The translations under genes were made by a program, and so were the position numbers. A stretch of 64,000 bases of DNA from Bulleidia sp. (GTDB lineage Bacteria > Bacillota_I > Bacilli_A > Erysipelotrichales > Erysipelotrichaceae), in assembly GCA_045641845.1 (NCBI GenBank), contig JAZUHS010000240.1:8136-72135 (forward strand), in the 5' to 3' direction. How positions within the stretch are numbered: position 1 is the stretch's first letter; the number at the start of each line of letters is the position of its first letter. The notes beneath the pieces were generated by a model, which was not told where the DNA came from, searched no databases, and saw only the letters and a list, made by a program, of their open reading frames with translations. Shown in pieces: positions 3,768 to 61,312 of the stretch.

Positions 3768-3859
3768 AAGTGTGCTCCTTTTTTGTGCTTCCCTATTTTA
3801 GGAGCGCAATTGAAAGTGTTCAATAAAAAACATCTGCATTATACAGATGTTTACGTGTT

Positions 3860-4183
3860 TCAGCAGGAACCGTTGCAACAGCCGCCTTCTTCAGCGGGTG
3901 CGGGTGTTTCTGTTTCCTGATCGATGATGTTTTCGATGTCAGAAAGAACCTTTTCAACATCCAGTGTGAGTGTTCCGTCTGCCAGTTCAATTACCGGGAG
4001 TCCGACTCTGCCCTGTTCCTTGATTTCATCGAACATGGGATTTGTATCTCTCATCTTCAGGAATGCTCTGAGGTTGGGAATGTTTTCTGTGATTTCTACG
4101 AATTCGTAGGGAATGTTCTTTGCGTCGAGTACTGCTTTCAGTTCATTGCAGCCGCGGCAGATTTTGGAGCCATAGATTTTCAT
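3860..4183 (-). CDS. Glutaredoxin-like protein
   Basis: IYGSKICRGC CxxC motif, VGLPVI cis-Pro motif, Cys-rich tail CCNGSC. Confidence 0.8.
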   Translation of the reverse strand: MKIYGSKICRGCNELKAVLDAKNIPYEFVEITENIPNLRAFLKMRDTNPMFDEIKEQGRVGLPVIELADGTLTLDVEKVLSDIENIIDQETETPAPAEEGGCCNGSC

Positions 4184-4249
4184 ATTGATGTTCCTCTCTT
4201 TTGCTCTTTTATTATACAGGTCATTCTCTGTAATACATGTGTATGCACC

Positions 4250-4286
4250 TAAAAAAAGGATTCGGCATTATCTGCAGAATCCTTTA
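4250..4286 (-). terminator. Intrinsic terminator closing the 4290-4740 intergenic unit
   Basis: Minus strand AAAGGATTC-tgcagataatgcc-GAATCCTTTTTTT. Confidence 0.7.
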
Positions 4287-4653
4287 TTCGTGTTCTTTTT
4301 TTCCTGGTGAAATATGATTTCATTCTTCTCAGTTTTCACTGAGTATTATCAGATTCGGTTTTTTATGTAAGATTGTCCATTGGTCTGATCTCATGCAGAC
4401 TTGTACTTTCTTTATCAGTTTATGTTTGCGAAGATTTCTGCATTATCTCCGTGTGAGTGATCATTTACAGTCAGCTGTTTCTGATCAGTTCACTTAGCTT
4501 TGCAGAATGCACCGTTAGGGATTGTTTCTCCTGTTAGGCCGGATGTCTACGTTCCCTTCTTATTCTGCTTCAGAAGAGAACGGCGCGGAAATAATTTGTC
4601 TTTTCATGATTCTCTTCCTCTCTTTCAGTTTGATCTTCTTTGAGAAGATCGGC

Positions 4654-4683
4654 TTACCTGTAATTGAGCAGTACCTTCTTCAT
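4654..4683 (-). CDS. Putative micropeptide MKKVLLNYR
   Basis: Near-perfect Shine-Dalgarno AAAGGAGGT 7 nt upstream of ATG; only 9 codons. Confidence 0.4.
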   Translation of the reverse strand: MKKVLLNYR

Positions 4684-4795
4684 AGAGCTTACCTCCTTTG
4701 TTTAAGGTGTATCTCTTTGTACTTTCAATATACTGGATTTCCTGTTTCGTAACAGTCTATCTTTGAAAAATTATTTATTCTATAATTAACTTGTT

Positions 4796-4829
4796 AGGGG
4801 CCTGATTCGCAAGAACCGGGCCCCTTTTG
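4796..4829 (-). terminator. Terminator-like hairpin after the S9 peptidase gene
   Basis: GGGGCC-cggttcttgcgaatca-GGCCCC inverted repeat just after the stop codon. Confidence 0.6.
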
Positions 4830-4836
4830 TTATTGA

Positions 4837-6786
4837 TCAGTTATTATCGAGATGAGAATTCATCCAGTTGAGTGTTTCTGTGAAGGAACGTTCACGATGT
4901 GAAGGCTTACCGATGTTGTTCAGACCATGGGAATCGCCTTCGAATGTGACAACGCGTGTTTCGCAGCCATGATCCATCAGAGATGTAACCATCTGCAGGC
5001 CATCGGAGAGGTGGCAGCGGAAGTCATCGAGAGGCTGAATGAACAGTGTCGGTGTGACGCAGTTGTTTGCGTATGCCAGCGGGGAGCACTTCCAGTATGT
5101 TTCAATTTCATCCCAGGGAGAGCCACCCATGAGTTCCTTAACGTAGAGACGGGAGATGTCAGATACACCGTACATGGATACCCAGTTAACAACTGAGCAC
5201 TGGGAGCTTGCAGCGTGGAAACGGTTTGTGTGACCGATGATCCAGTTTGTCATGAAGCCGCCATAGGATACACCTGTGACGCCCATGCGTTCTGTATCGA
5301 TTGAAGGATACTTTTCGAGAACTGCGTCTGTGAAGGCCATGATGTCTTCATAGTCGGGGCCACCTGTCATTCTGCGGATTTCAGCGAAGTCGTTGCCTCT
5401 GCCATCGGAACCCTGAGGGTTGCAATAGAAGACAAAGTAACCCTGAGATGCCCACAGCTGAATGACATGCTGGTAGATAGGATAGAATACACCCTTAGGA
5501 CCGCCGTGGATATAGAGGATTGCCGGATACTTCTTAGCGGGGTCGTAATCGAAAGGCTTGGAGATGTAGCCGTCGATTTCCCATCCTCTGCGTGTGATTG
5601 TCATAGGTTCAGCTTCTGCGACATAGTAATCCTTGAGGAGATCATCATTGAAGTTACTGATCTGCACTGCCTTGCCGTCTACAACTGCATATACTTCATT
5701 GAGGTGCAGTTCATGGAGACCAGTGAATACGAGTGTACCGTTCTGTTCGTCAAAGCTTGTGATGGATCCGTTCCAATCGAATACAGGCTTGATACCTTCA
5801 TCGTTGAAGGAGAATACTGTGTTGCTGTATCTCTGCATGCTGTTAAACAGGAATGCTTCGGGTGTGTTGACGATTGCGCCGAAGGAGTAGTCACCTTCGC
5901 AGATGAGTGTCAGTTCACCTGTTTCTGTATTTACTTCAAAGAAGTCAGGGTGTGTGCTTCCTCCGTACTTGGATGCGTCTGCAGCCATGAATACGAGCTT
6001 ACCGTTATATGCAGCAACTGCCTGTCTGCTGTTGTCATACTTAGTGTTCTTTACGACTGTGCAGATTTCCTTTGTTTTTGTGTTGAAGCACATTACATCC
6101 TTATACAGGGGATTTGTCTGGCTGTATTCATAGCCGGAGTAATATACGTTATCACCGATCACTGCTGTGCTCTGTACTTCGAATAAAGCGGAGCTTGCAG
6201 GTGTGATTGTGTCTGTTTCTTCTTCATAGAGGAAGAGACGGTTTCTCATCTTGTTCTGGAAACCGGGCATGCCGTTGAGCCAGAAGGGTGTTTCGTCAAT
6301 GACATTGAAGTCCTTGTTCTTCTTGCGGTCATCTGCGACAGCTTTCTTTTCTTCTGCTGTCATCTTGTAGTAGTCAGCGACTGTTGCATCACAGAATGCT
6401 GTAATGAGGTATACACCTTCACCGAGCTTCTGGACATTGCGAGCCTTTACCGGAACCTTGAATGCCTTCTGTGCTTCACCGCCGTTAAGGGATACACGAT
6501 AGAATACTGTGAAGTCTTCTTCAGCAGCCTTCTTCTTGTCTGTTTCATCGCGCAGAGCAGGGAAGAGCAGTGTGTTGTTATCATCAAAAATAAATGAGTT
6601 TTCTTTGCCAAGGCCTGTGAAGGGTTTGAATTCTTCGCCATCCTTTACCCAGATTTTGTAGTTATAGCCGTCTTCGTCATTATTTACGGTCTGTACAGTG
6701 ACAGCGATCTTTGTTCCATCAGGAGATACTTTTACTGTCTGAGGGATACGATACTGTCTGAATAATTCTAAAGTTACCTTTTCCAT
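4837..6786 (-). CDS. S9 family peptidase (acylaminoacyl/dipeptidyl peptidase-like)
   Basis: Beta-propeller N-terminus, IHGGP, catalytic GVSYGG, D-x-R and H (GDSHGL) of the alpha/beta hydrolase triad. Confidence 0.92.
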   Translation of the reverse strand: MEKVTLELFRQYRIPQTVKVSPDGTKIAVTVQTVNNDEDGYNYKIWVKDGEEFKPFTGLGKENSFIFDDNNTLLFPALRDETDKKKAAEEDFTVFYRVSLNGGEAQKAFKVPVKARNVQKLGEGVYLITAFCDATVADYYKMTAEEKKAVADDRKKNKDFNVIDETPFWLNGMPGFQNKMRNRLFLYEEETDTITPASSALFEVQSTAVIGDNVYYSGYEYSQTNPLYKDVMCFNTKTKEICTVVKNTKYDNSRQAVAAYNGKLVFMAADASKYGGSTHPDFFEVNTETGELTLICEGDYSFGAIVNTPEAFLFNSMQRYSNTVFSFNDEGIKPVFDWNGSITSFDEQNGTLVFTGLHELHLNEVYAVVDGKAVQISNFNDDLLKDYYVAEAEPMTITRRGWEIDGYISKPFDYDPAKKYPAILYIHGGPKGVFYPIYQHVIQLWASQGYFVFYCNPQGSDGRGNDFAEIRRMTGGPDYEDIMAFTDAVLEKYPSIDTERMGVTGVSYGGFMTNWIIGHTNRFHAASSQCSVVNWVSMYGVSDISRLYVKELMGGSPWDEIETYWKCSPLAYANNCVTPTLFIQPLDDFRCHLSDGLQMVTSLMDHGCETRVVTFEGDSHGLNNIGKPSHRERSFTETLNWMNSHLDNN

Positions 6787-6962: not shown

Positions 6963-9122
6963 TTACTTCATCAGAGAAGCAACTTCGTTCATGTTTGTGA
7001 TTTCTTCGTTGACTGCTGTCTGATAGAAAGCAAGCTGAGCGTCGTGTGCACCCTTGTAGATTGCGATTTCTTCTGTGAAGTCAGGATTTTCTTCTTCTGC
7101 CTTAGCAAGCATGCCAAGTGTTGCCTGATATGTATCTGCCAGGTAGAATCCCTTATCTGTACCCCACCACTTATTTCCTTCTGTGGATGCATCAACATGC
7201 TTTTCGATGTTCTTGACTGCTTCCGGAGAGAAGATGTAGTAGTTGTATTCAACAATACCGTTGATTGCATATGCTGTATCAAGAGCTGTTTCAATGTCGC
7301 CTTCTTCAAGAGCTGCTGTAACAGCATCAATCAGATAGAGGTTTTCGAGATAGCCCATATGACGTGTTACGATATCACTGGAGAAGATAATGGAGATAAA
7401 GTTGTCCTGGATTGCCTTGAAGACAGAGAGAATCTCCTTATTCAGTCCTGTACCTTCAGCACGGATTGCATCCTTTTCTTCAGCAGATGCGGAAGCATAG
7501 CGTGCGTTGATATCTGCAGCCTTTGCATTCAGTGCTTCAGCAGCTGCCATCAGGTTTTCAGCAGCGGCATTCCAGGCATCAACATCTACACCGTCATTCA
7601 TAGCTGCATATTCAGCATCGAATGTTTCCATCAGGTCATAGACTGTTGCTGTCAGGTCGAGCATCATTGCGGGGTTCTGGTCAATTGCAATTGCGATGGA
7701 GCCGAAGACACCGATGTTAGCCTTCATAACCTTTTCGCAGTATGTATCAGCGTTATCGCTTTCTGTGTGATAGTGAAGCTGTGTCCAGCCATATTCATCT
7801 TCGGAACGGTTGCCTGCGCATGTATCTGTTACGTTAATGAAGTAAGGCACACCATGATGTCTGTAGGAGACGCCGTCTTCCATTGTTGTAGTGTCGAATG
7901 TTGCATCTGTTACGCCGTTAGCATATTCAGAAGCTGCGTAATCAAGAAGACCTTCTTCAACAAGTGTACCTACGAGTGTTGCGTATTCTGGTACGCAGCT
8001 GACTGCAAATGTGTCACCGCCGTCATCGAATGCGCATAATTCATAGTTAAACAGAGCAAGTGTCTTTTCCGCCCATTCAGGATGAGCTGTGTCGATCATT
8101 TCCCAGGCACCGCGTGTCCAGTCGAATTCTGTACCTGTGGAGCCCCATTCTTCTGCGCCGTGTGCTACAACCAGGACATCGTTTTCAGGTGTGTAGCCGC
8201 TGTCGATCATTGCCTTAGCCATGGACATTGCTGTTGCGATGGCAGAGCAGTCATCCTGGAAGCCTGTGAAGTACATGTCATAGTGACCTGCGAAGATCAT
8301 CTGCTGAGCAGAGCTCTTGCCCTTGATCTTACCTACGACGTTATAGGATGTGCCTCCATTAGGAACCATGACACTGTCAACTTTGAGTGTGCACATGTTA
8401 TGGCCAGCTTCCAGTTCAGCTGCGAGTGCTTCGTATTCATTTGCTGTGATGATGACTGTAGGCATTAAATCTTCGCAGCAGATATCCTGAATCTGATGGT
8501 CATCACTGGAGAAACGGCCATAGCCATCCATGTCATATGTGACGAGTGCTGCAGCACCGTGCTCATTTGCTTCATAGATGTATCCGTCGATCCAGGATTC
8601 GTTCCACTGGTCTACGCCGACCAGAACGATCTTGCCTTCAACGTCTACATCTTCGTAGTCATATACGAAACCTGTACCAAGGTCTACGATTTCAGCTGTA
8701 ATACCATTTTCATCTGTACCGTTGCACATATAGGATACAGGGGTCAGTGTAAGGTCAGAGTCAGCGATTGTGAGTTCTGCGCCATTGAACTGCCACTTAT
8801 CTACTGTGACAGGAACCTTTTCTACCTCAACCAGGCCAATCTTCTTCATTTCTTCGGCAATGAAGTCAGCGGCCTTGTGTTCTGCATCAGAACCGGATGT
8901 GCGGAAACCAAGTTCATTTTCATGCATGCTCGGATCTGTGGAGAGTGTGTAGGTAAGGTTGTATGCATATTCCATATCGATTGCGTCGACATATGCTTTA
9001 ACCATTTCCTGAATGCCTGTTTCTTCAGTTTCAGGTGTTGCGGAAACAGGTGTGGAAGAAGCGGGTTTTGTGCAGCCTGCAGCGAGCAGCACAGCGAGTG
9101 TAAGAGTTGTGATCTTCTTCAT
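6963..9122 (-). CDS. Lipoprotein M28-family metallopeptidase with PA domain
   Basis: Lipobox LAAG/C; PA domain (DVEGKIVLV); Zn ligands GHYD, QDDCS, AEEWG, ELC, HYHTESD. Confidence 0.85.
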   Translation of the reverse strand: MKKITTLTLAVLLAAGCTKPASSTPVSATPETEETGIQEMVKAYVDAIDMEYAYNLTYTLSTDPSMHENELGFRTSGSDAEHKAADFIAEEMKKIGLVEVEKVPVTVDKWQFNGAELTIADSDLTLTPVSYMCNGTDENGITAEIVDLGTGFVYDYEDVDVEGKIVLVGVDQWNESWIDGYIYEANEHGAAALVTYDMDGYGRFSSDDHQIQDICCEDLMPTVIITANEYEALAAELEAGHNMCTLKVDSVMVPNGGTSYNVVGKIKGKSSAQQMIFAGHYDMYFTGFQDDCSAIATAMSMAKAMIDSGYTPENDVLVVAHGAEEWGSTGTEFDWTRGAWEMIDTAHPEWAEKTLALFNYELCAFDDGGDTFAVSCVPEYATLVGTLVEEGLLDYAASEYANGVTDATFDTTTMEDGVSYRHHGVPYFINVTDTCAGNRSEDEYGWTQLHYHTESDNADTYCEKVMKANIGVFGSIAIAIDQNPAMMLDLTATVYDLMETFDAEYAAMNDGVDVDAWNAAAENLMAAAEALNAKAADINARYASASAEEKDAIRAEGTGLNKEILSVFKAIQDNFISIIFSSDIVTRHMGYLENLYLIDAVTAALEEGDIETALDTAYAINGIVEYNYYIFSPEAVKNIEKHVDASTEGNKWWGTDKGFYLADTYQATLGMLAKAEEENPDFTEEIAIYKGAHDAQLAFYQTAVNEEITNMNEVASLMK

Positions 9123-9170: not shown

Positions 9171-9407
9171 CTGAATCATCCTATACAAGTTCATTCTGCT
9201 ACAGAAATCGCTTCTTATTGACCATTTCATAAAGGTATGATGCGTACTTTACAAAACTGAGCTTTTAACTCAGATCAATAAGGCAACAAGTGCCTTCCGT
9301 ATTCCCTAAATACGGTTCTTATCTCTTCGATAAGTTTCCGGCATTTGACCCGGCCGTCCGTGTAGCCTCGGCTTGATAAAGCGGTCATTTCTGTACTCTT
9401 TGTACGG
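9171..9407 (-). ncRNA. Orphan structured 5' leader, candidate riboswitch/attenuator of unknown class
   Basis: Lies between a consensus promoter and a terminator; 9-bp closing helix (9387-9395 with 9200-9208) enclosing five abutting hairpins; no T-box or other riboswitch consensus recognised. Confidence 0.6.
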
Positions 9408-29359: not shown

Positions 29360-29600
29360 GAGATAATAAAAAGACATCCTGCTGAAAGGACGTCTTGCAC
29401 GCGGTACCACCTTTGTCTTGTCTGCAGAATATGCAGACCTCTCAAACGTTGTAACGGACGTCTCCGGGTTATGTTAACGATTCGCATAACCGGCTCCGGG
29501 GCCATGTTCTTCCATCTTTCGAAACAGACTTTCACCAGCCGTCTGCTCTCTGCATTCTAATAACGGAATACTCTTCCCTTCTTTGCTTTTCAACGCATCT
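29360..29600 (-). promoter_or_regulatory. T-box riboswitch (Met)
   Basis: AGTA, AGAGAG and GGTG stem I elements, specifier GAAC-AUG (29502-29504), T-box AAGGTGGTACCGCG (about 29400-29413), terminator. Confidence 0.93.
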
Positions 29601-59519: not shown

Positions 59520-59529
59520 ATACAAAAAA

Positions 59530-59607
59530 GTGGCACACGCAATCAGAGGGTTGTATGGCTGCTACCTTCCGGTCCTGACCAGGTTCTATCCATGAATGCT
59601 GTGCCAC
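59530..59607 (-). ncRNA. ffs: Small (4.5S-type) SRP RNA
   Basis: Conserved domain IV UCAGGACCGGAAGGUAGCAGC enclosed by GUGGCAC/GUGCCAC stem; promoter TTGCAG-N17-TATAAT at 59612-59640. Confidence 0.93.
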
Positions 59608-59683
59608 GGATATTATATAGGAATACCCGTCCATCTGCAAGCACGCCTGTTCGCATGAAACATTTTGGCGGAAGTGGCGTGAT

Positions 59684-61074: not shown

Positions 61075-61305
61075 CAAAATAAAAACATCGAACCCATCAA
61101 AGGGACGATGTTATCGCGGTGCCACCCTTTTTGTAACGATTGTTTCACGTGAAACAATTGATACCTCTCGTTTATGCGAGTAACGGTCGCTCCCGTAAGT
61201 GATTAGCTTCTCTCCAGGATGGATTCTCTTTCTACGGTGACTGTTCTCATCAACCACAGTCTTTCTTGAACTACTTTCGAAAGATACTATTTCCTATCGA
61301 CGATT
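61075..61305 (-). promoter_or_regulatory. T-box riboswitch (Ser)
   Basis: AGTA and GGTTGATG stem I, specifier GAA-UCC (61221-61223), T-box AAGGGTGGCACCGCG (about 61115-61129), terminator. Confidence 0.93.
61141..61156. promoter_or_regulatory. parS site inside the serS T-box leader
   Basis: Perfect TGTTTCACGTGAAACA, extended to the 20-bp palindrome ATTGTTTCACGTGAAACAAT. Confidence 0.92.
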
Positions 61306-61312
61306 TCATCTA

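Follow-up and report, generated by a model that had tools for sequence, protein, structure and literature searches.

A conserved octapeptide reading frame joined to a covarying RNA domain: a putative stand-alone riboregulator in Erysipelotrichaceae

What does an intergenic region of 653 nucleotides (nt) without any long open reading frame (ORF) encode? The question is raised by a 64,000-nt stretch of DNA from Bulleidia sp. (GenBank assembly GCA_045641845.1, contig JAZUHS010000240.1, positions 8,136 to 72,135 of the forward strand; this whole stretch is hereafter called the window), in which the region at 4184-4836 lies between two minus-strand genes. Its longest minus-strand ORF measures 24 amino acids (aa), in agreement with the original prediction, made from the letters alone, that none exceeds 25 aa. 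That prediction had proposed a unit bounded by terminators and carrying only micro-ORFs and hairpins, and had regarded it either as a polycistronic locus of peptide signals next to two peptidases or as a small RNA (sRNA) acting as a sponge that presents Shine-Dalgarno (SD) or GGA motifs. A discrete hairpin-bounded unit without a long ORF was indeed recovered, and the five predicted micro-ORFs and the hairpins were all found where they had been placed. We describe here the element that accounts for this ~650-nt "empty" region. It combines a conserved ORF of eight codons (ORF1), hairpins, a structured 3' domain that contains a second mini-ORF (ORF2), and an intrinsic terminator. The reading that we favour, and to which we give an even chance, is that the element is a stand-alone translated riboregulator, a transcription unit of ~480 nt in which the translation of ORF1 would be coupled to an RNA switch in the 3' domain. 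The features on which the argument relies are the following.

4184-4836, intergenic region of 653 nt between two minus-strand genes
4251-4824, minus strand (the sense strand), the element as a whole
4654-4699, minus strand, SD sequence AAAGGAGGT (4699-4691) and ORF1, MKKVLLNYR (4683-4654), with its stop codon
4632-4650, minus strand, post-stop hairpin GATCTTCT-CAA-AGAAGATC, starting 3 nt after the ORF1 stop codon
4551-4581, minus strand, hairpin H1, GTTCTCTTCT - loop GAAGCAGAATA - AGAAGGGAAC, with GCAGA at 4568-4564
4293-4416, minus strand, structured 3' domain, composed of AGAAAGTAC AAG, P1, ORF2, AACCGAAT, P2 and P3
4383-4400, minus strand, helix P1, GTCTG - CATGAGAT - CAGAC
4380-4363, minus strand, ORF2, MDNLT, including its stop codon
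4328-4343, minus strand, helix P2, CTCAGT - GAAA - ACTGAG, with a GNRA-type loop
4308-4322, minus strand, helix P3, TGAAAT - CAT - ATTTCA
4251-4285, minus strand, intrinsic terminator AAAGGATTC...GAATCCTTT followed by TTTTTTT, the end of the unit

ORF1 is preceded by a strong SD sequence and has the consensus M-K-(K/E)-(V/I)-L-L-(E/N)-Y. Its conservation can be judged at loci that were found without using ORF1 itself, namely the 22 matches of the 3'-domain covariance model R1 outside this genome. Two of these matches lie at contig ends, and at all of the 20 checkable loci an 8-codon ORF of the form MK(K/E/R)(V/I)L(L/F/K)(E/K)(Y/F/I/P) is present 65-180 nt upstream of the 3' domain. Across these loci, the per-site divergence is ~0.2 inside ORF1 vs ~0.65 in both flanks. 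No indels were observed in the frame, and the codon differences (406 synonymous, 338 nonsynonymous) fall mostly on third positions and on the first positions of Leu and Lys/Glu codons. The ATG is present in 20/20, and the stop codon directly follows codon 8 in 19/20, with one ORF reaching 10 codons. A larger set of 92 unique copies was gathered with a degenerate ORF1 codon pattern. Here, the two Leu positions together use all six Leu codons; all 36 TTN codons at these positions are TTR (Leu) and none is TTY (Phe), though the pattern permitted TTY, and the 21 ATN codons at position 4 include no ATG. Of the 92 copies, 59 end after codon 8 and 24 after codon 9, and a few lineages carry tails of up to 6 further residues, so that the peptide ranges from 8 to 14 aa; it contains no run of one amino acid. 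Judged from these comparisons, the variation of ORF1 is the signature of a translated ORF whose first eight residues matter, and its short length, SD sequence and conserved frame, start and stop are those of a leader peptide.

The number of ORF1 copies per unit varies from 1 to 4 and differs between close relatives. Two loci, L112 and L174, carry tandem arrays of four ORF1 copies and no recognisable 3' domain. The array in L112 (sense strand, ~145-560) reads MKKILLNY, MKEILLEI, MKEILLNY and MKEILLEI, with its own hairpin after each copy and one terminator at the end. In the genome analysed here, the degenerate pattern gave 4 matches, which are confined to two loci, and the control gave 0.

A hairpin directly past the ORF1 stop codon is a second constant feature. 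Among 96 unique ORF1 copies, a hairpin begins 0-5 nt past the stop in 89, and the 50 nt past the stop fold with a mean of -14.6 kcal/mol vs -6.6 kcal/mol for shuffled sequences (mean z-score, z, -3.75). In most elements this post-stop hairpin is H1, which has a lower stem GTTYCY...GGGRAAC, a variable upper stem and a GCAGA loop. The window differs in that a simple hairpin at 4650-4632 (-9.0 kcal/mol, z -5.8) comes first and H1 (-14.9 kcal/mol, z -3.2; 88% identity by BLAST to a second copy of the element in this genome) follows further on at 4581-4551.

The 3' domain has a fixed order of parts: AGAAAGTG-AAAG, P1 with GAGG in its loop, CCAATGGACAA, AACTGAAT, P2 with a GNRA loop, and P3. That of the window scores 95.4 bits against R1 (E 1e-18). 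RNAalifold, run on a MAFFT alignment, returned only 2 pairs because the stems were out of register; P1-P3 were therefore written by eye and their pairs counted. In an alignment of 33 sequences, 80.9% of the cells of P1-P3 are paired vs 71.2% in shuffled alignments, and vs 28-43% when the partners were slid, a control that leans in favour of the structure since the helices were derived from the same sequences as were counted. Cells changed on both sides number 64 vs 29 in the shuffled alignments, and 0/500 shuffles reach 64. Both-sided changes occur in 6/6 pairs of P2 and in 4/6 pairs of P3, where one pair is G-U in 10 sequences. In P1, 98.7% of the cells are paired, and the pairs are either invariant or changed to G-U in a manner that fits only the minus strand. 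The GTCTG/CAGAC and CTCAGT/ACTGAG hairpins of the window also fold. The hairpins of the original prediction thus proved to be conserved structures, both in the pair changes of P1-P3 and in the hairpin past the ORF1 stop. The motif GAAAGTG.AAAG is common to the start of the 3' domain and the 5' leader of the unit. At the other end of the domain, the terminator (4285-4251) folds with -16.6 kcal/mol (z -4.2) and has homologues in the second copy and in the relatives examined, which supports the strong terminator proposed for the 3' side. A simple terminator scan flagged neither boundary hairpin on the minus strand, and the 3' terminator was checked by folding instead.

ORF2 lies between P1 and P2, and in relatives the loop of P1 holds GAGG, the SD sequence of ORF2. 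Its ATG is present in 73 of 74 unique copies, and its length is 5 aa in 51/74 and 5-7 aa in 67/74. Its stop codon alternates (TAA 46, TGA 26, TAG 2) and keeps a fixed distance of ~4 nt from the following AACTGAAT. Asp occupies position 2 in 56/74 copies (GAC in 54), and the remaining residues vary freely; the length and position of ORF2 are thus conserved, and its peptide is not. The proposed array of five peptides found no support, as conservation in the form of an ORF is limited to MKKVLLNYR and MDNLT. Of these two, ORF1 has an amino-acid sequence under selection, and ORF2 keeps its length and not its sequence. The three micro-ORFs that are not conserved are listed below.

4607-4560, minus strand, ORF MKRQIISAPFSSEAE, 15 aa, overlapping hairpin H1
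4443-4420, minus strand, MQKSSQT, inside a variable linker
4323-4249, minus strand, MKSYFTRKK..., starting within hairpin P3; its ATG is not conserved

The frame and length of ORF MKRQIISAPFSSEAE are kept only in the second copy in this genome (MKLMIIHSSFSSRSE), with many amino-acid changes, and it has no counterpart among the micro-ORFs listed for 18 loci of the genus; it is probably incidental or species-specific. A possible decayed start, AGGAG followed by ATC (~4530-4515), had also been proposed; that it is a degenerate third copy of ORF1 was considered and not supported, as the site is unlike ORF1 and BLAST did not match it to the second copy. The motif A(A/T)CTGA, said to recur about five times, does have 5 minus-strand copies in 4250-4745 vs ~0.6 predicted from the window-wide rate (151 matches on both strands in 64 kb).

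A link between ORF1, its hairpin and the 3' domain is suggested by the H1 loop. Its sequence GCAGA is complementary to the 5' arm of P1, UCUGC, which also pairs with the 3' arm of P1, CAGAC. Loop and arm occur together in 59 elements, 14 elements have neither, 5 are discordant, and in 9 no 3' domain is recognisable. With CTGC, the common state is CAGAC and GCAGA (43 elements), beside some G-U variants, and where the arm reads CTAC, TAGAC and GTAGA accompany it in 5/5. Such a three-way change is what two mutually exclusive pairings would produce, and the joint change of the H1 loop and the two P1 arms suggests a switch.

On this basis the following mechanism can be proposed. ORF1 would be translated, and a ribosome ending or pausing on it would melt the hairpin beside the stop codon. 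This melting would tip the balance between two competitors for the P1 5' arm (GUCUGC), namely GCAGA in the H1 loop and CAGAC in the P1 3' arm, and the altered balance would open or close the ribosome-binding site of ORF2 and refold the 3' domain. The conserved nascent octapeptide would set the dwell time of the ribosome, as in the cat, cmlA, erm and toiL leaders. Given a terminator of its own and no conserved gene downstream, the unit would most likely have as its output the RNA itself, by way of stability, conformation or an action in trans. Expression would probably be co-regulated with the promoter of a divergent nudC gene through a shared AGACT box, both of which are described below. A more specific form of this proposal, which we put forward tentatively and regard as less likely than not, is an orphan sensory riboregulator. 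The octapeptide would read the state of the ribosome in the exit tunnel (as set by a small molecule, an antibiotic or a translation factor) and would switch the 3' domain between the H1 loop and P1 pairings; the domain would then act in trans, and the RNA would be co-regulated with, and possibly capped or decapped via, the NAD-RNA decapping NudC.

The element is not confined to one locus. A second copy in the same genome (C151:36721-37534) matches the first in five colinear BLAST patches with 70-88% identity, and R1 finds exactly these two copies, with 95 and 94 bits. The second copy lies between a gene for a NUDIX/Zn-ribbon (NudC-type) protein and an AhpC/TSA gene, both on the strand opposite to the element. 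It carries three ORF1s (MKKVLLNY, MKKVLLNYR and MKKILLNYR), each with its own SD sequence and with differing codons, and has counterparts of H1, of the terminator and of the GTCTG/CAGAC hairpin, with ATGGAC behind the latter. The two copies differ in their orientation relative to the neighbouring genes, and the unit is therefore independent of it.

Conservation in related genomes, which the original prediction had named as a check, was found in 17/24 other genomes of the same genus in the form of BLAST-matching patches. A generic scan for SD sequences and micro-ORFs recovered ORF1-like peptides at 14/18 fetched loci of the genus, and a pattern scan added two loci with weaker SD sequences (L016 and L021). 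Across the family, the ORF1 pattern occurs in 82/401 genomes and 19/83 genera, and a reversed control pattern in 4 genomes. R1, with strict filters that make its counts lower bounds, matched 18/150 genomes and 12/83 genera in an evenly drawn family sample; in an order-wide draw it matched 14/75 Erysipelotrichaceae, 0/74 genomes of the sister family f3 and 0/1 of family f2. A scan of species-representative genomes for the SD sequence and pattern gave at least 119 stretches. Among the 80 matches listed, 52 carry an ORF of at most 14 aa, and these come mostly from genomes named Erysipelotrichaceae, Solobacterium, Bulleidia, Lactimicrobium, Galactobacillus or Holdemania, with a few generic labels and one labelled Lachnospiraceae (L076); candidate cultivable carriers are Lactimicrobium massiliense Marseille-P4301 (L075) and Erysipelotrichaceae bacterium 7770_A6 (L108). 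The other 28 of the 80 listed are longer ORFs, mostly ordinary proteins with a chance likeness at the N-terminus (two measure 15-18 aa). Among the genomes searched, the RNA family is restricted to Erysipelotrichaceae.

Sixteen of those 28 longer ORFs belong to a family of predicted membrane proteins of 229 aa from AT-rich metagenome-assembled genomes (MAGs) labelled "uncultured Bacilli/Tenericutes", which start with MKK(V/I)LLEYAN... (loci L063, L074, L077, L094, L107, L122 and L139 among them). These proteins were considered as relatives of ORF1 and rejected. The likeness is limited to the first 8 residues and was judged to be a chance resemblance to a signal-anchor N-terminus; tblastn of seven of the proteins against both copies of the element matched only those residues, or one 18-residue stretch at E 0.039.

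Upstream of ORF1, an alignment of 67 non-redundant upstream regions revealed a common frame: a hairpin, C.CAACA-N5-ATTATA, ~22 nt, A.AGACT, ~21 nt, TATATT-GAAAGTG.AAAGAGA, a variable stretch, and AAGGAGGT-N7-9-ATG. The corresponding features of the window are as follows.

4797-4824, left-boundary hairpin GGGGCCCGG...CAGGCCCC, with its T-run on the plus strand
4781-4800, minus strand, CCCCTAACA-N5-ATTATA; on the plus strand, TATAAT at 4781-4786
4754-4758, minus strand, AGACT box (80% consensus A.AGACT)
4732-4727, minus strand, TATATT, followed at 4726-4712 by the conserved 5' leader GAAAGTACAAAGAGA

At least 80% of the 67 aligned elements share the left hairpin and the C.CAACA after it, and the 80% consensus.C.CAACA.....ATTAT has a fixed spacing. 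The hairpin folds with -22.7 kcal/mol on the plus strand (z -4.5) and -20.7 kcal/mol on the minus strand. It had been taken for the terminator of the S9 peptidase gene (4796-4829), an assignment that its T-run contradicts, as this lies on the plus strand and not on that of the peptidase gene; moreover, the hairpin is conserved whatever gene lies upstream. It has the form of the intrinsic-terminator-like hairpin of a putative short plus-strand transcript, and its position is that at which the leader of a divergent NudC gene sits at other loci. Since ATTATA reads TATAAT on the other strand and the T-run of the hairpin is there too, the left module looks like a divergent promoter with a short leader hairpin. 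The TATAAT at 4781-4786 is thus likely the -10 box of the divergent promoter from which, at most other loci, the NudC gene is transcribed; in the window this box is directed into the S9 peptidase gene at its 3' end. TATATT and the leader have the 80% consensus.TAT..T..A.GT..A.A.A.A, and TATATT is likely the -10 box of the unit. The AGACT box lies 22 nt from ATTATA and 21 nt from TATATT, central between the two divergent -10-like boxes, and may be the site of a shared regulator. A standard sigma-70 promoter made up of AGACT and TATATT was rejected, the distance of 21 nt being unfit for a -35/-10 pair, and a simple sigma-70 scan of the minus strand gave only weak 9-of-12 sites at 4797-4770 and 4549-4521. 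Two pairings noticed by eye, that of the AAAGAGA of the 5' leader with the 5' arm of H1 and that of the divergent short transcript UGUUGGGG with the leader sequence ACCAAC, are not general across loci and were likewise dropped.

A NudC homologue starts divergently 111-340 nt from the ORF1 ATG in 55/87 non-redundant elements; it is absent in 23/87 with at least 1000 nt of upstream sequence, and 9/87 cannot be judged. The window copy has kept the left module and has no nudC. This recurrent neighbour, together with the position of the second copy between NudC-type and AhpC/TSA genes, speaks against the proposed link to two peptidases, which is not conserved. It was also observed that the plus strand at 4781-4835 carries TATAAT, TGTTGRGG within ~12 nt of it, a GC-rich hairpin and a T-run, and that the same arrangement occurs in each of the 67 aligned loci and in L007 (~2700-2745). 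The nudC leader would thus open with a terminator-like hairpin at its extreme 5' end, which suggests control of nudC by conditional termination or in a manner sensitive to the initiating nucleotide.

The genes flanking the region in the window are these.

4837-6786, minus strand, S9 peptidase gene
3860-4183, minus strand, glutaredoxin-like gene, 107 aa

Downstream genes could be called for 73 elements and are varied. Convergent heavy-metal P-type ATPase genes follow in 17 and co-oriented M24 aminopeptidase P genes in another 17; convergent genes of an unknown family (8), 2-hydroxyacid dehydrogenase (4), DUF1275 (4) and RpiR (3) genes come next, and the remaining clusters of one or two genes include DUF2397, PF01663 and GH1. 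With more than 20 clusters, many of them convergent, no single consistent gene emerges as a regulated target. Among the neighbours examined, no gene for an exporter, a processing or modifying enzyme or a receptor recurs beside the unit. An extended -10-like box, TGTATAAT, stands directly after the terminator and ahead of the glutaredoxin-like gene (4184-4250, minus strand), which suggests that this gene need not depend on readthrough. Some units with ORF1 and hairpins and no 3' domain were observed upstream of a co-oriented gene for a PF01663 type I phosphodiesterase/nucleotide pyrophosphatase, as in L102 (139-1254, minus strand); only the L102 gene was run against Pfam, that of L105 falls in the same BLAST cluster, and that of L066 was assigned by a similar N-terminus, read by eye. 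The pairing suggests a second association with a nucleotide pyrophosphatase, beside that with nudC.

How firmly can the riboregulator reading be held? Several points weigh against it. Perhaps two independent lineages underlie the three-way covariation. In seven elements for which sufficient sequence is available, the two four-copy arrays L112 and L174 among them, ORF1 and hairpins are present and no 3' domain is recognisable; the switch is therefore not the whole story, and such cases fit a peptide product better. The promoter of the unit was assigned by consensus alone, and the 21-nt spacing between AGACT and TATATT misfits a standard -35/-10 pair. Most ORF1 copies were gathered with a degenerate pattern that itself fixes the amino acids, and the unbiased sets, namely the 20 model-ascertained loci and the BLAST-ascertained loci of the genus, are phylogenetically related. 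Finally, the Glu codon at ORF1 position 7 is nearly always GAA and the Asp codon of ORF2 is GAC in 54 copies vs GAT in 2, and some constraint therefore acts at the nucleotide level.

The main rival to the riboregulator is that the octapeptide itself is the product. The unit would then be a tiny mRNA, sometimes a tandem array, whose directly translated peptide works in trans, either as a signal (intracellular or exported) or as an effector of an enzyme or the ribosome, and the role of the hairpins and the 3' domain would be confined to mRNA stability and translational control. The amino-acid-level conservation of ORF1, its copy number of 1-4 per unit that varies among close relatives, and the elements that have no 3' domain, four-copy arrays included, would all suit this explanation, which we nevertheless consider rather unlikely. 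The tolerated C-terminal extensions of 1-6 residues fit a nascent-chain role better than a precise mature peptide; ORF1 stands upstream at each of the 20 checkable R1 loci, so that the 3' domain, where present, is tied to ORF1; and, with a peptide of 8-14 aa and no linked exporter, processing or receptor gene, the locus does not resemble that of a pheromone, a ribosomally synthesized and post-translationally modified peptide (RiPP) or a phenol-soluble modulin (PSM). A leaderless peptide of eight residues is not known to belong to any pheromone or RiPP route. A cis-acting leader or attenuator, which would control either the downstream gene by terminator readthrough (M24 aminopeptidase P, or the glutaredoxin-like gene here) or the divergent nudC by promoter interplay, would explain why the layout of SD sequence, short ORF, hairpins and terminator resembles that of leader-peptide attenuators. 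The co-oriented M24 aminopeptidase P genes, found in more than one genus, the divergent nudC in 55/87 elements and the ORF1-only variants upstream of PF01663 genes point the same way. The downstream gene is convergent in most other contexts, however, those with 2-hydroxyacid dehydrogenase, DUF1275 and RpiR genes included; the second copy points at the 3' end of the AhpC gene, the window copy has no nudC, and a -10-like box after the terminator is present in the window (TGTATAAT) and likewise, as TATAAT read by eye, in L023. Taken together, this makes control of a neighbour in cis quite improbable.

If, on the other hand, ORF1 were untranslated, the element would be a purely non-coding sRNA or sponge in which the SD-like sequences and AUG are binding motifs or part of an aptamer and the 3' domain binds a ligand or protein. 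Long conserved single-stranded purine-rich stretches surround the covarying stems of the 3' domain, conservation of the GAA and GAC codons extends to the nucleotides, and GAAAGTG.AAAG is repeated between leader and domain, as would be expected of such an RNA. It is made very doubtful by the variation of ORF1, which is of the wobble type and never an indel, by its ATG and stop at the model-ascertained loci (20/20 and 19/20), and by the ORF2 stop, which alternates between TAA and TGA at a fixed position. The SD/GGA sponge of the original prediction is weakened by the same wobble-type variation, and also by the result for CsrA (PF02599), which was not found in this 95%-complete genome with a search that gave matches in control genomes; with no CsrA found and GAGG in a loop only in P1, the element is unlike CsrB/RsmY-type sponges. 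It is hardly credible that an ordinary gene decayed to give this region, or that short ORFs and hairpins came together in it by chance. The 229-aa membrane proteins from unrelated Bacilli/"Tenericutes" MAGs do begin like ORF1, and a 76-aa ORF with a TTG start occupies 4522-4752 of the plus strand, antisense to ORF1 and H1. The tblastn matches of the former cover only 8-18 residues with E 0.039 or higher, and the latter, which matched nothing in Pfam and is not conserved in the second copy, is probably spurious. A frameshifted gene remnant, the alternative named in the original prediction, thus gained no support from the Pfam and tblastn searches, and the unit is conserved over at least 12 genera with covarying helices.

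The known systems closest to the proposed riboregulator include translation-attenuation leaders. Those of cat-86, cmlA and ermC encode short sensory leader peptides; a stem-loop after the leader ORF governs a second ribosome-binding site, and a ribosome that dwells on the leader is considered to remodel the RNA beyond it. The element likewise has an SD sequence, a leader ORF of ~8-9 codons whose sequence matters and, directly after it, a stem-loop. In contrast to those leaders, its second ORF is a 5-codon mini-ORF and not a resistance gene, no consistent downstream gene follows, the unit has its own terminator, its ORF1 modules are repeatable 2-4 times, and no inducer is known for it. RNAIII/hld, SR1/SR1P and the psm-alpha operon are independent, terminator-ended transcripts of Firmicutes whose peptides of 20-44 aa form helices. 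The element shares with them a terminated transcript of ~200-500 nt that combines structured RNA with tiny ORFs, each with an SD sequence. It differs in its conserved ORF of 8 codons, whose nascent chain would be too short to emerge from the ribosomal tunnel, and in having no known base-pairing targets. The lambda bar minigenes and the "E-peptide" minigene of 23S rRNA are ORFs of 2-8 codons that act via translation itself, through peptidyl-tRNA drop-off or drug clearing. ORF2 resembles them as a pentapeptide ORF of conserved length; they are not known to have a conserved structured RNA context or family-wide conservation, and the residues of ORF2 (M-D-x-x-x) do not match the E-peptide consensus.

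According to its published description, the upstream ORF (uORF) toiL has a conserved stretch of its first seven amino acids, and its translation and stalling disrupt a hairpin, by which a ribosome-binding site further on is exposed; toiL belongs to the 5' region of a fixed operon and acts together with Rho. The element is alike in having a short uORF with conserved N-terminal residues, and hairpin disruption is the parallel that we propose. It is unlike toiL in being stand-alone, in belonging to Firmicutes, and in having an intrinsic terminator and a separate covarying 3' domain. For rnTrpL/peTrpL of Sinorhizobium, the reports describe an attenuator RNA and a 14-aa leader peptide that both act in trans (PMC7968998; bioRxiv 10.1101/606483). 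There, too, a small terminated RNA carries a tiny conserved ORF, and RNA and peptide can both act beyond attenuation in cis. Unlike rnTrpL, which is still a leader of trp biosynthesis genes with Trp codons, the element has no regulatory codons, no linked biosynthesis operon and another structure.

The searches of databases and literature gave no prior description. None of the 4 window matches to Rfam release 15 (4227 models, gathering score) lies within 4184-4836, and a permissive search (E up to 10) of 3800-5200 gave 7 matches, all far below threshold, the best with 21.9 bits vs a cut-off of 45. At 12 orthologous loci, Rfam matched only a T-box and tRNA elsewhere, and membership in a known RNA family was rejected on this basis. 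A mobile element, plasmid or phage origin was likewise rejected, as plasmid and phage collections gave no match to the element; terminal repeats were sought only by reading the sequence. In the literature search, the words of the ORF1 peptide occurred in no paper searched, and nothing on the element appeared under small ORFs or non-coding RNAs (ncRNAs) of Erysipelotrichaceae, uORFs, nudC or NAD-capped sRNA. Passages matched by term in an ncRNA survey of 50 genomes (PMC11109978) likewise gave nothing on the element, and the motif lists in its supplements could hold a related motif. An sORF-bearing (short-ORF) regulatory RNA or a sensory leader peptide is a known kind of element; the family, the stand-alone repeatable module and the pairing with nudC appear to be new.

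The element adds a family for annotation in Erysipelotrichaceae genomes, in which an octapeptide ORF joined to a covarying RNA domain has been kept in many genera of this major family of the gut and rumen. Gene callers miss conserved ORFs as short as 8 codons, and Rfam-style searches do not list them. If ORF1 is translated, the element would offer a clean natural system for the action of an octapeptide inside or outside the ribosome and for an RNA switch driven by a mini-ORF without a target gene in cis. That nudC so persistently lies divergent to the element suggests a tie with NAD metabolism or with NAD-RNA capping in Firmicutes, and the PF01663 pairing points the same way. Should the orphan-sensor proposal be true, few bacterial ORFs under amino-acid-level selection would be as short as ORF1, and the element would be the first attenuator-like sensor without a target in cis.

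Structured RNAs were also observed elsewhere in the window. An Rfam match to SpF59/ldcC RNA at 9338-9387 (minus strand; 56 bits vs a threshold of 37) lies upstream of an M28 peptidase gene (6963-9122), and two T-box leaders (29383-29592 and 61098-61309, minus strand) and a small signal recognition particle (SRP) RNA (59524-59610, minus strand) were matched as well.

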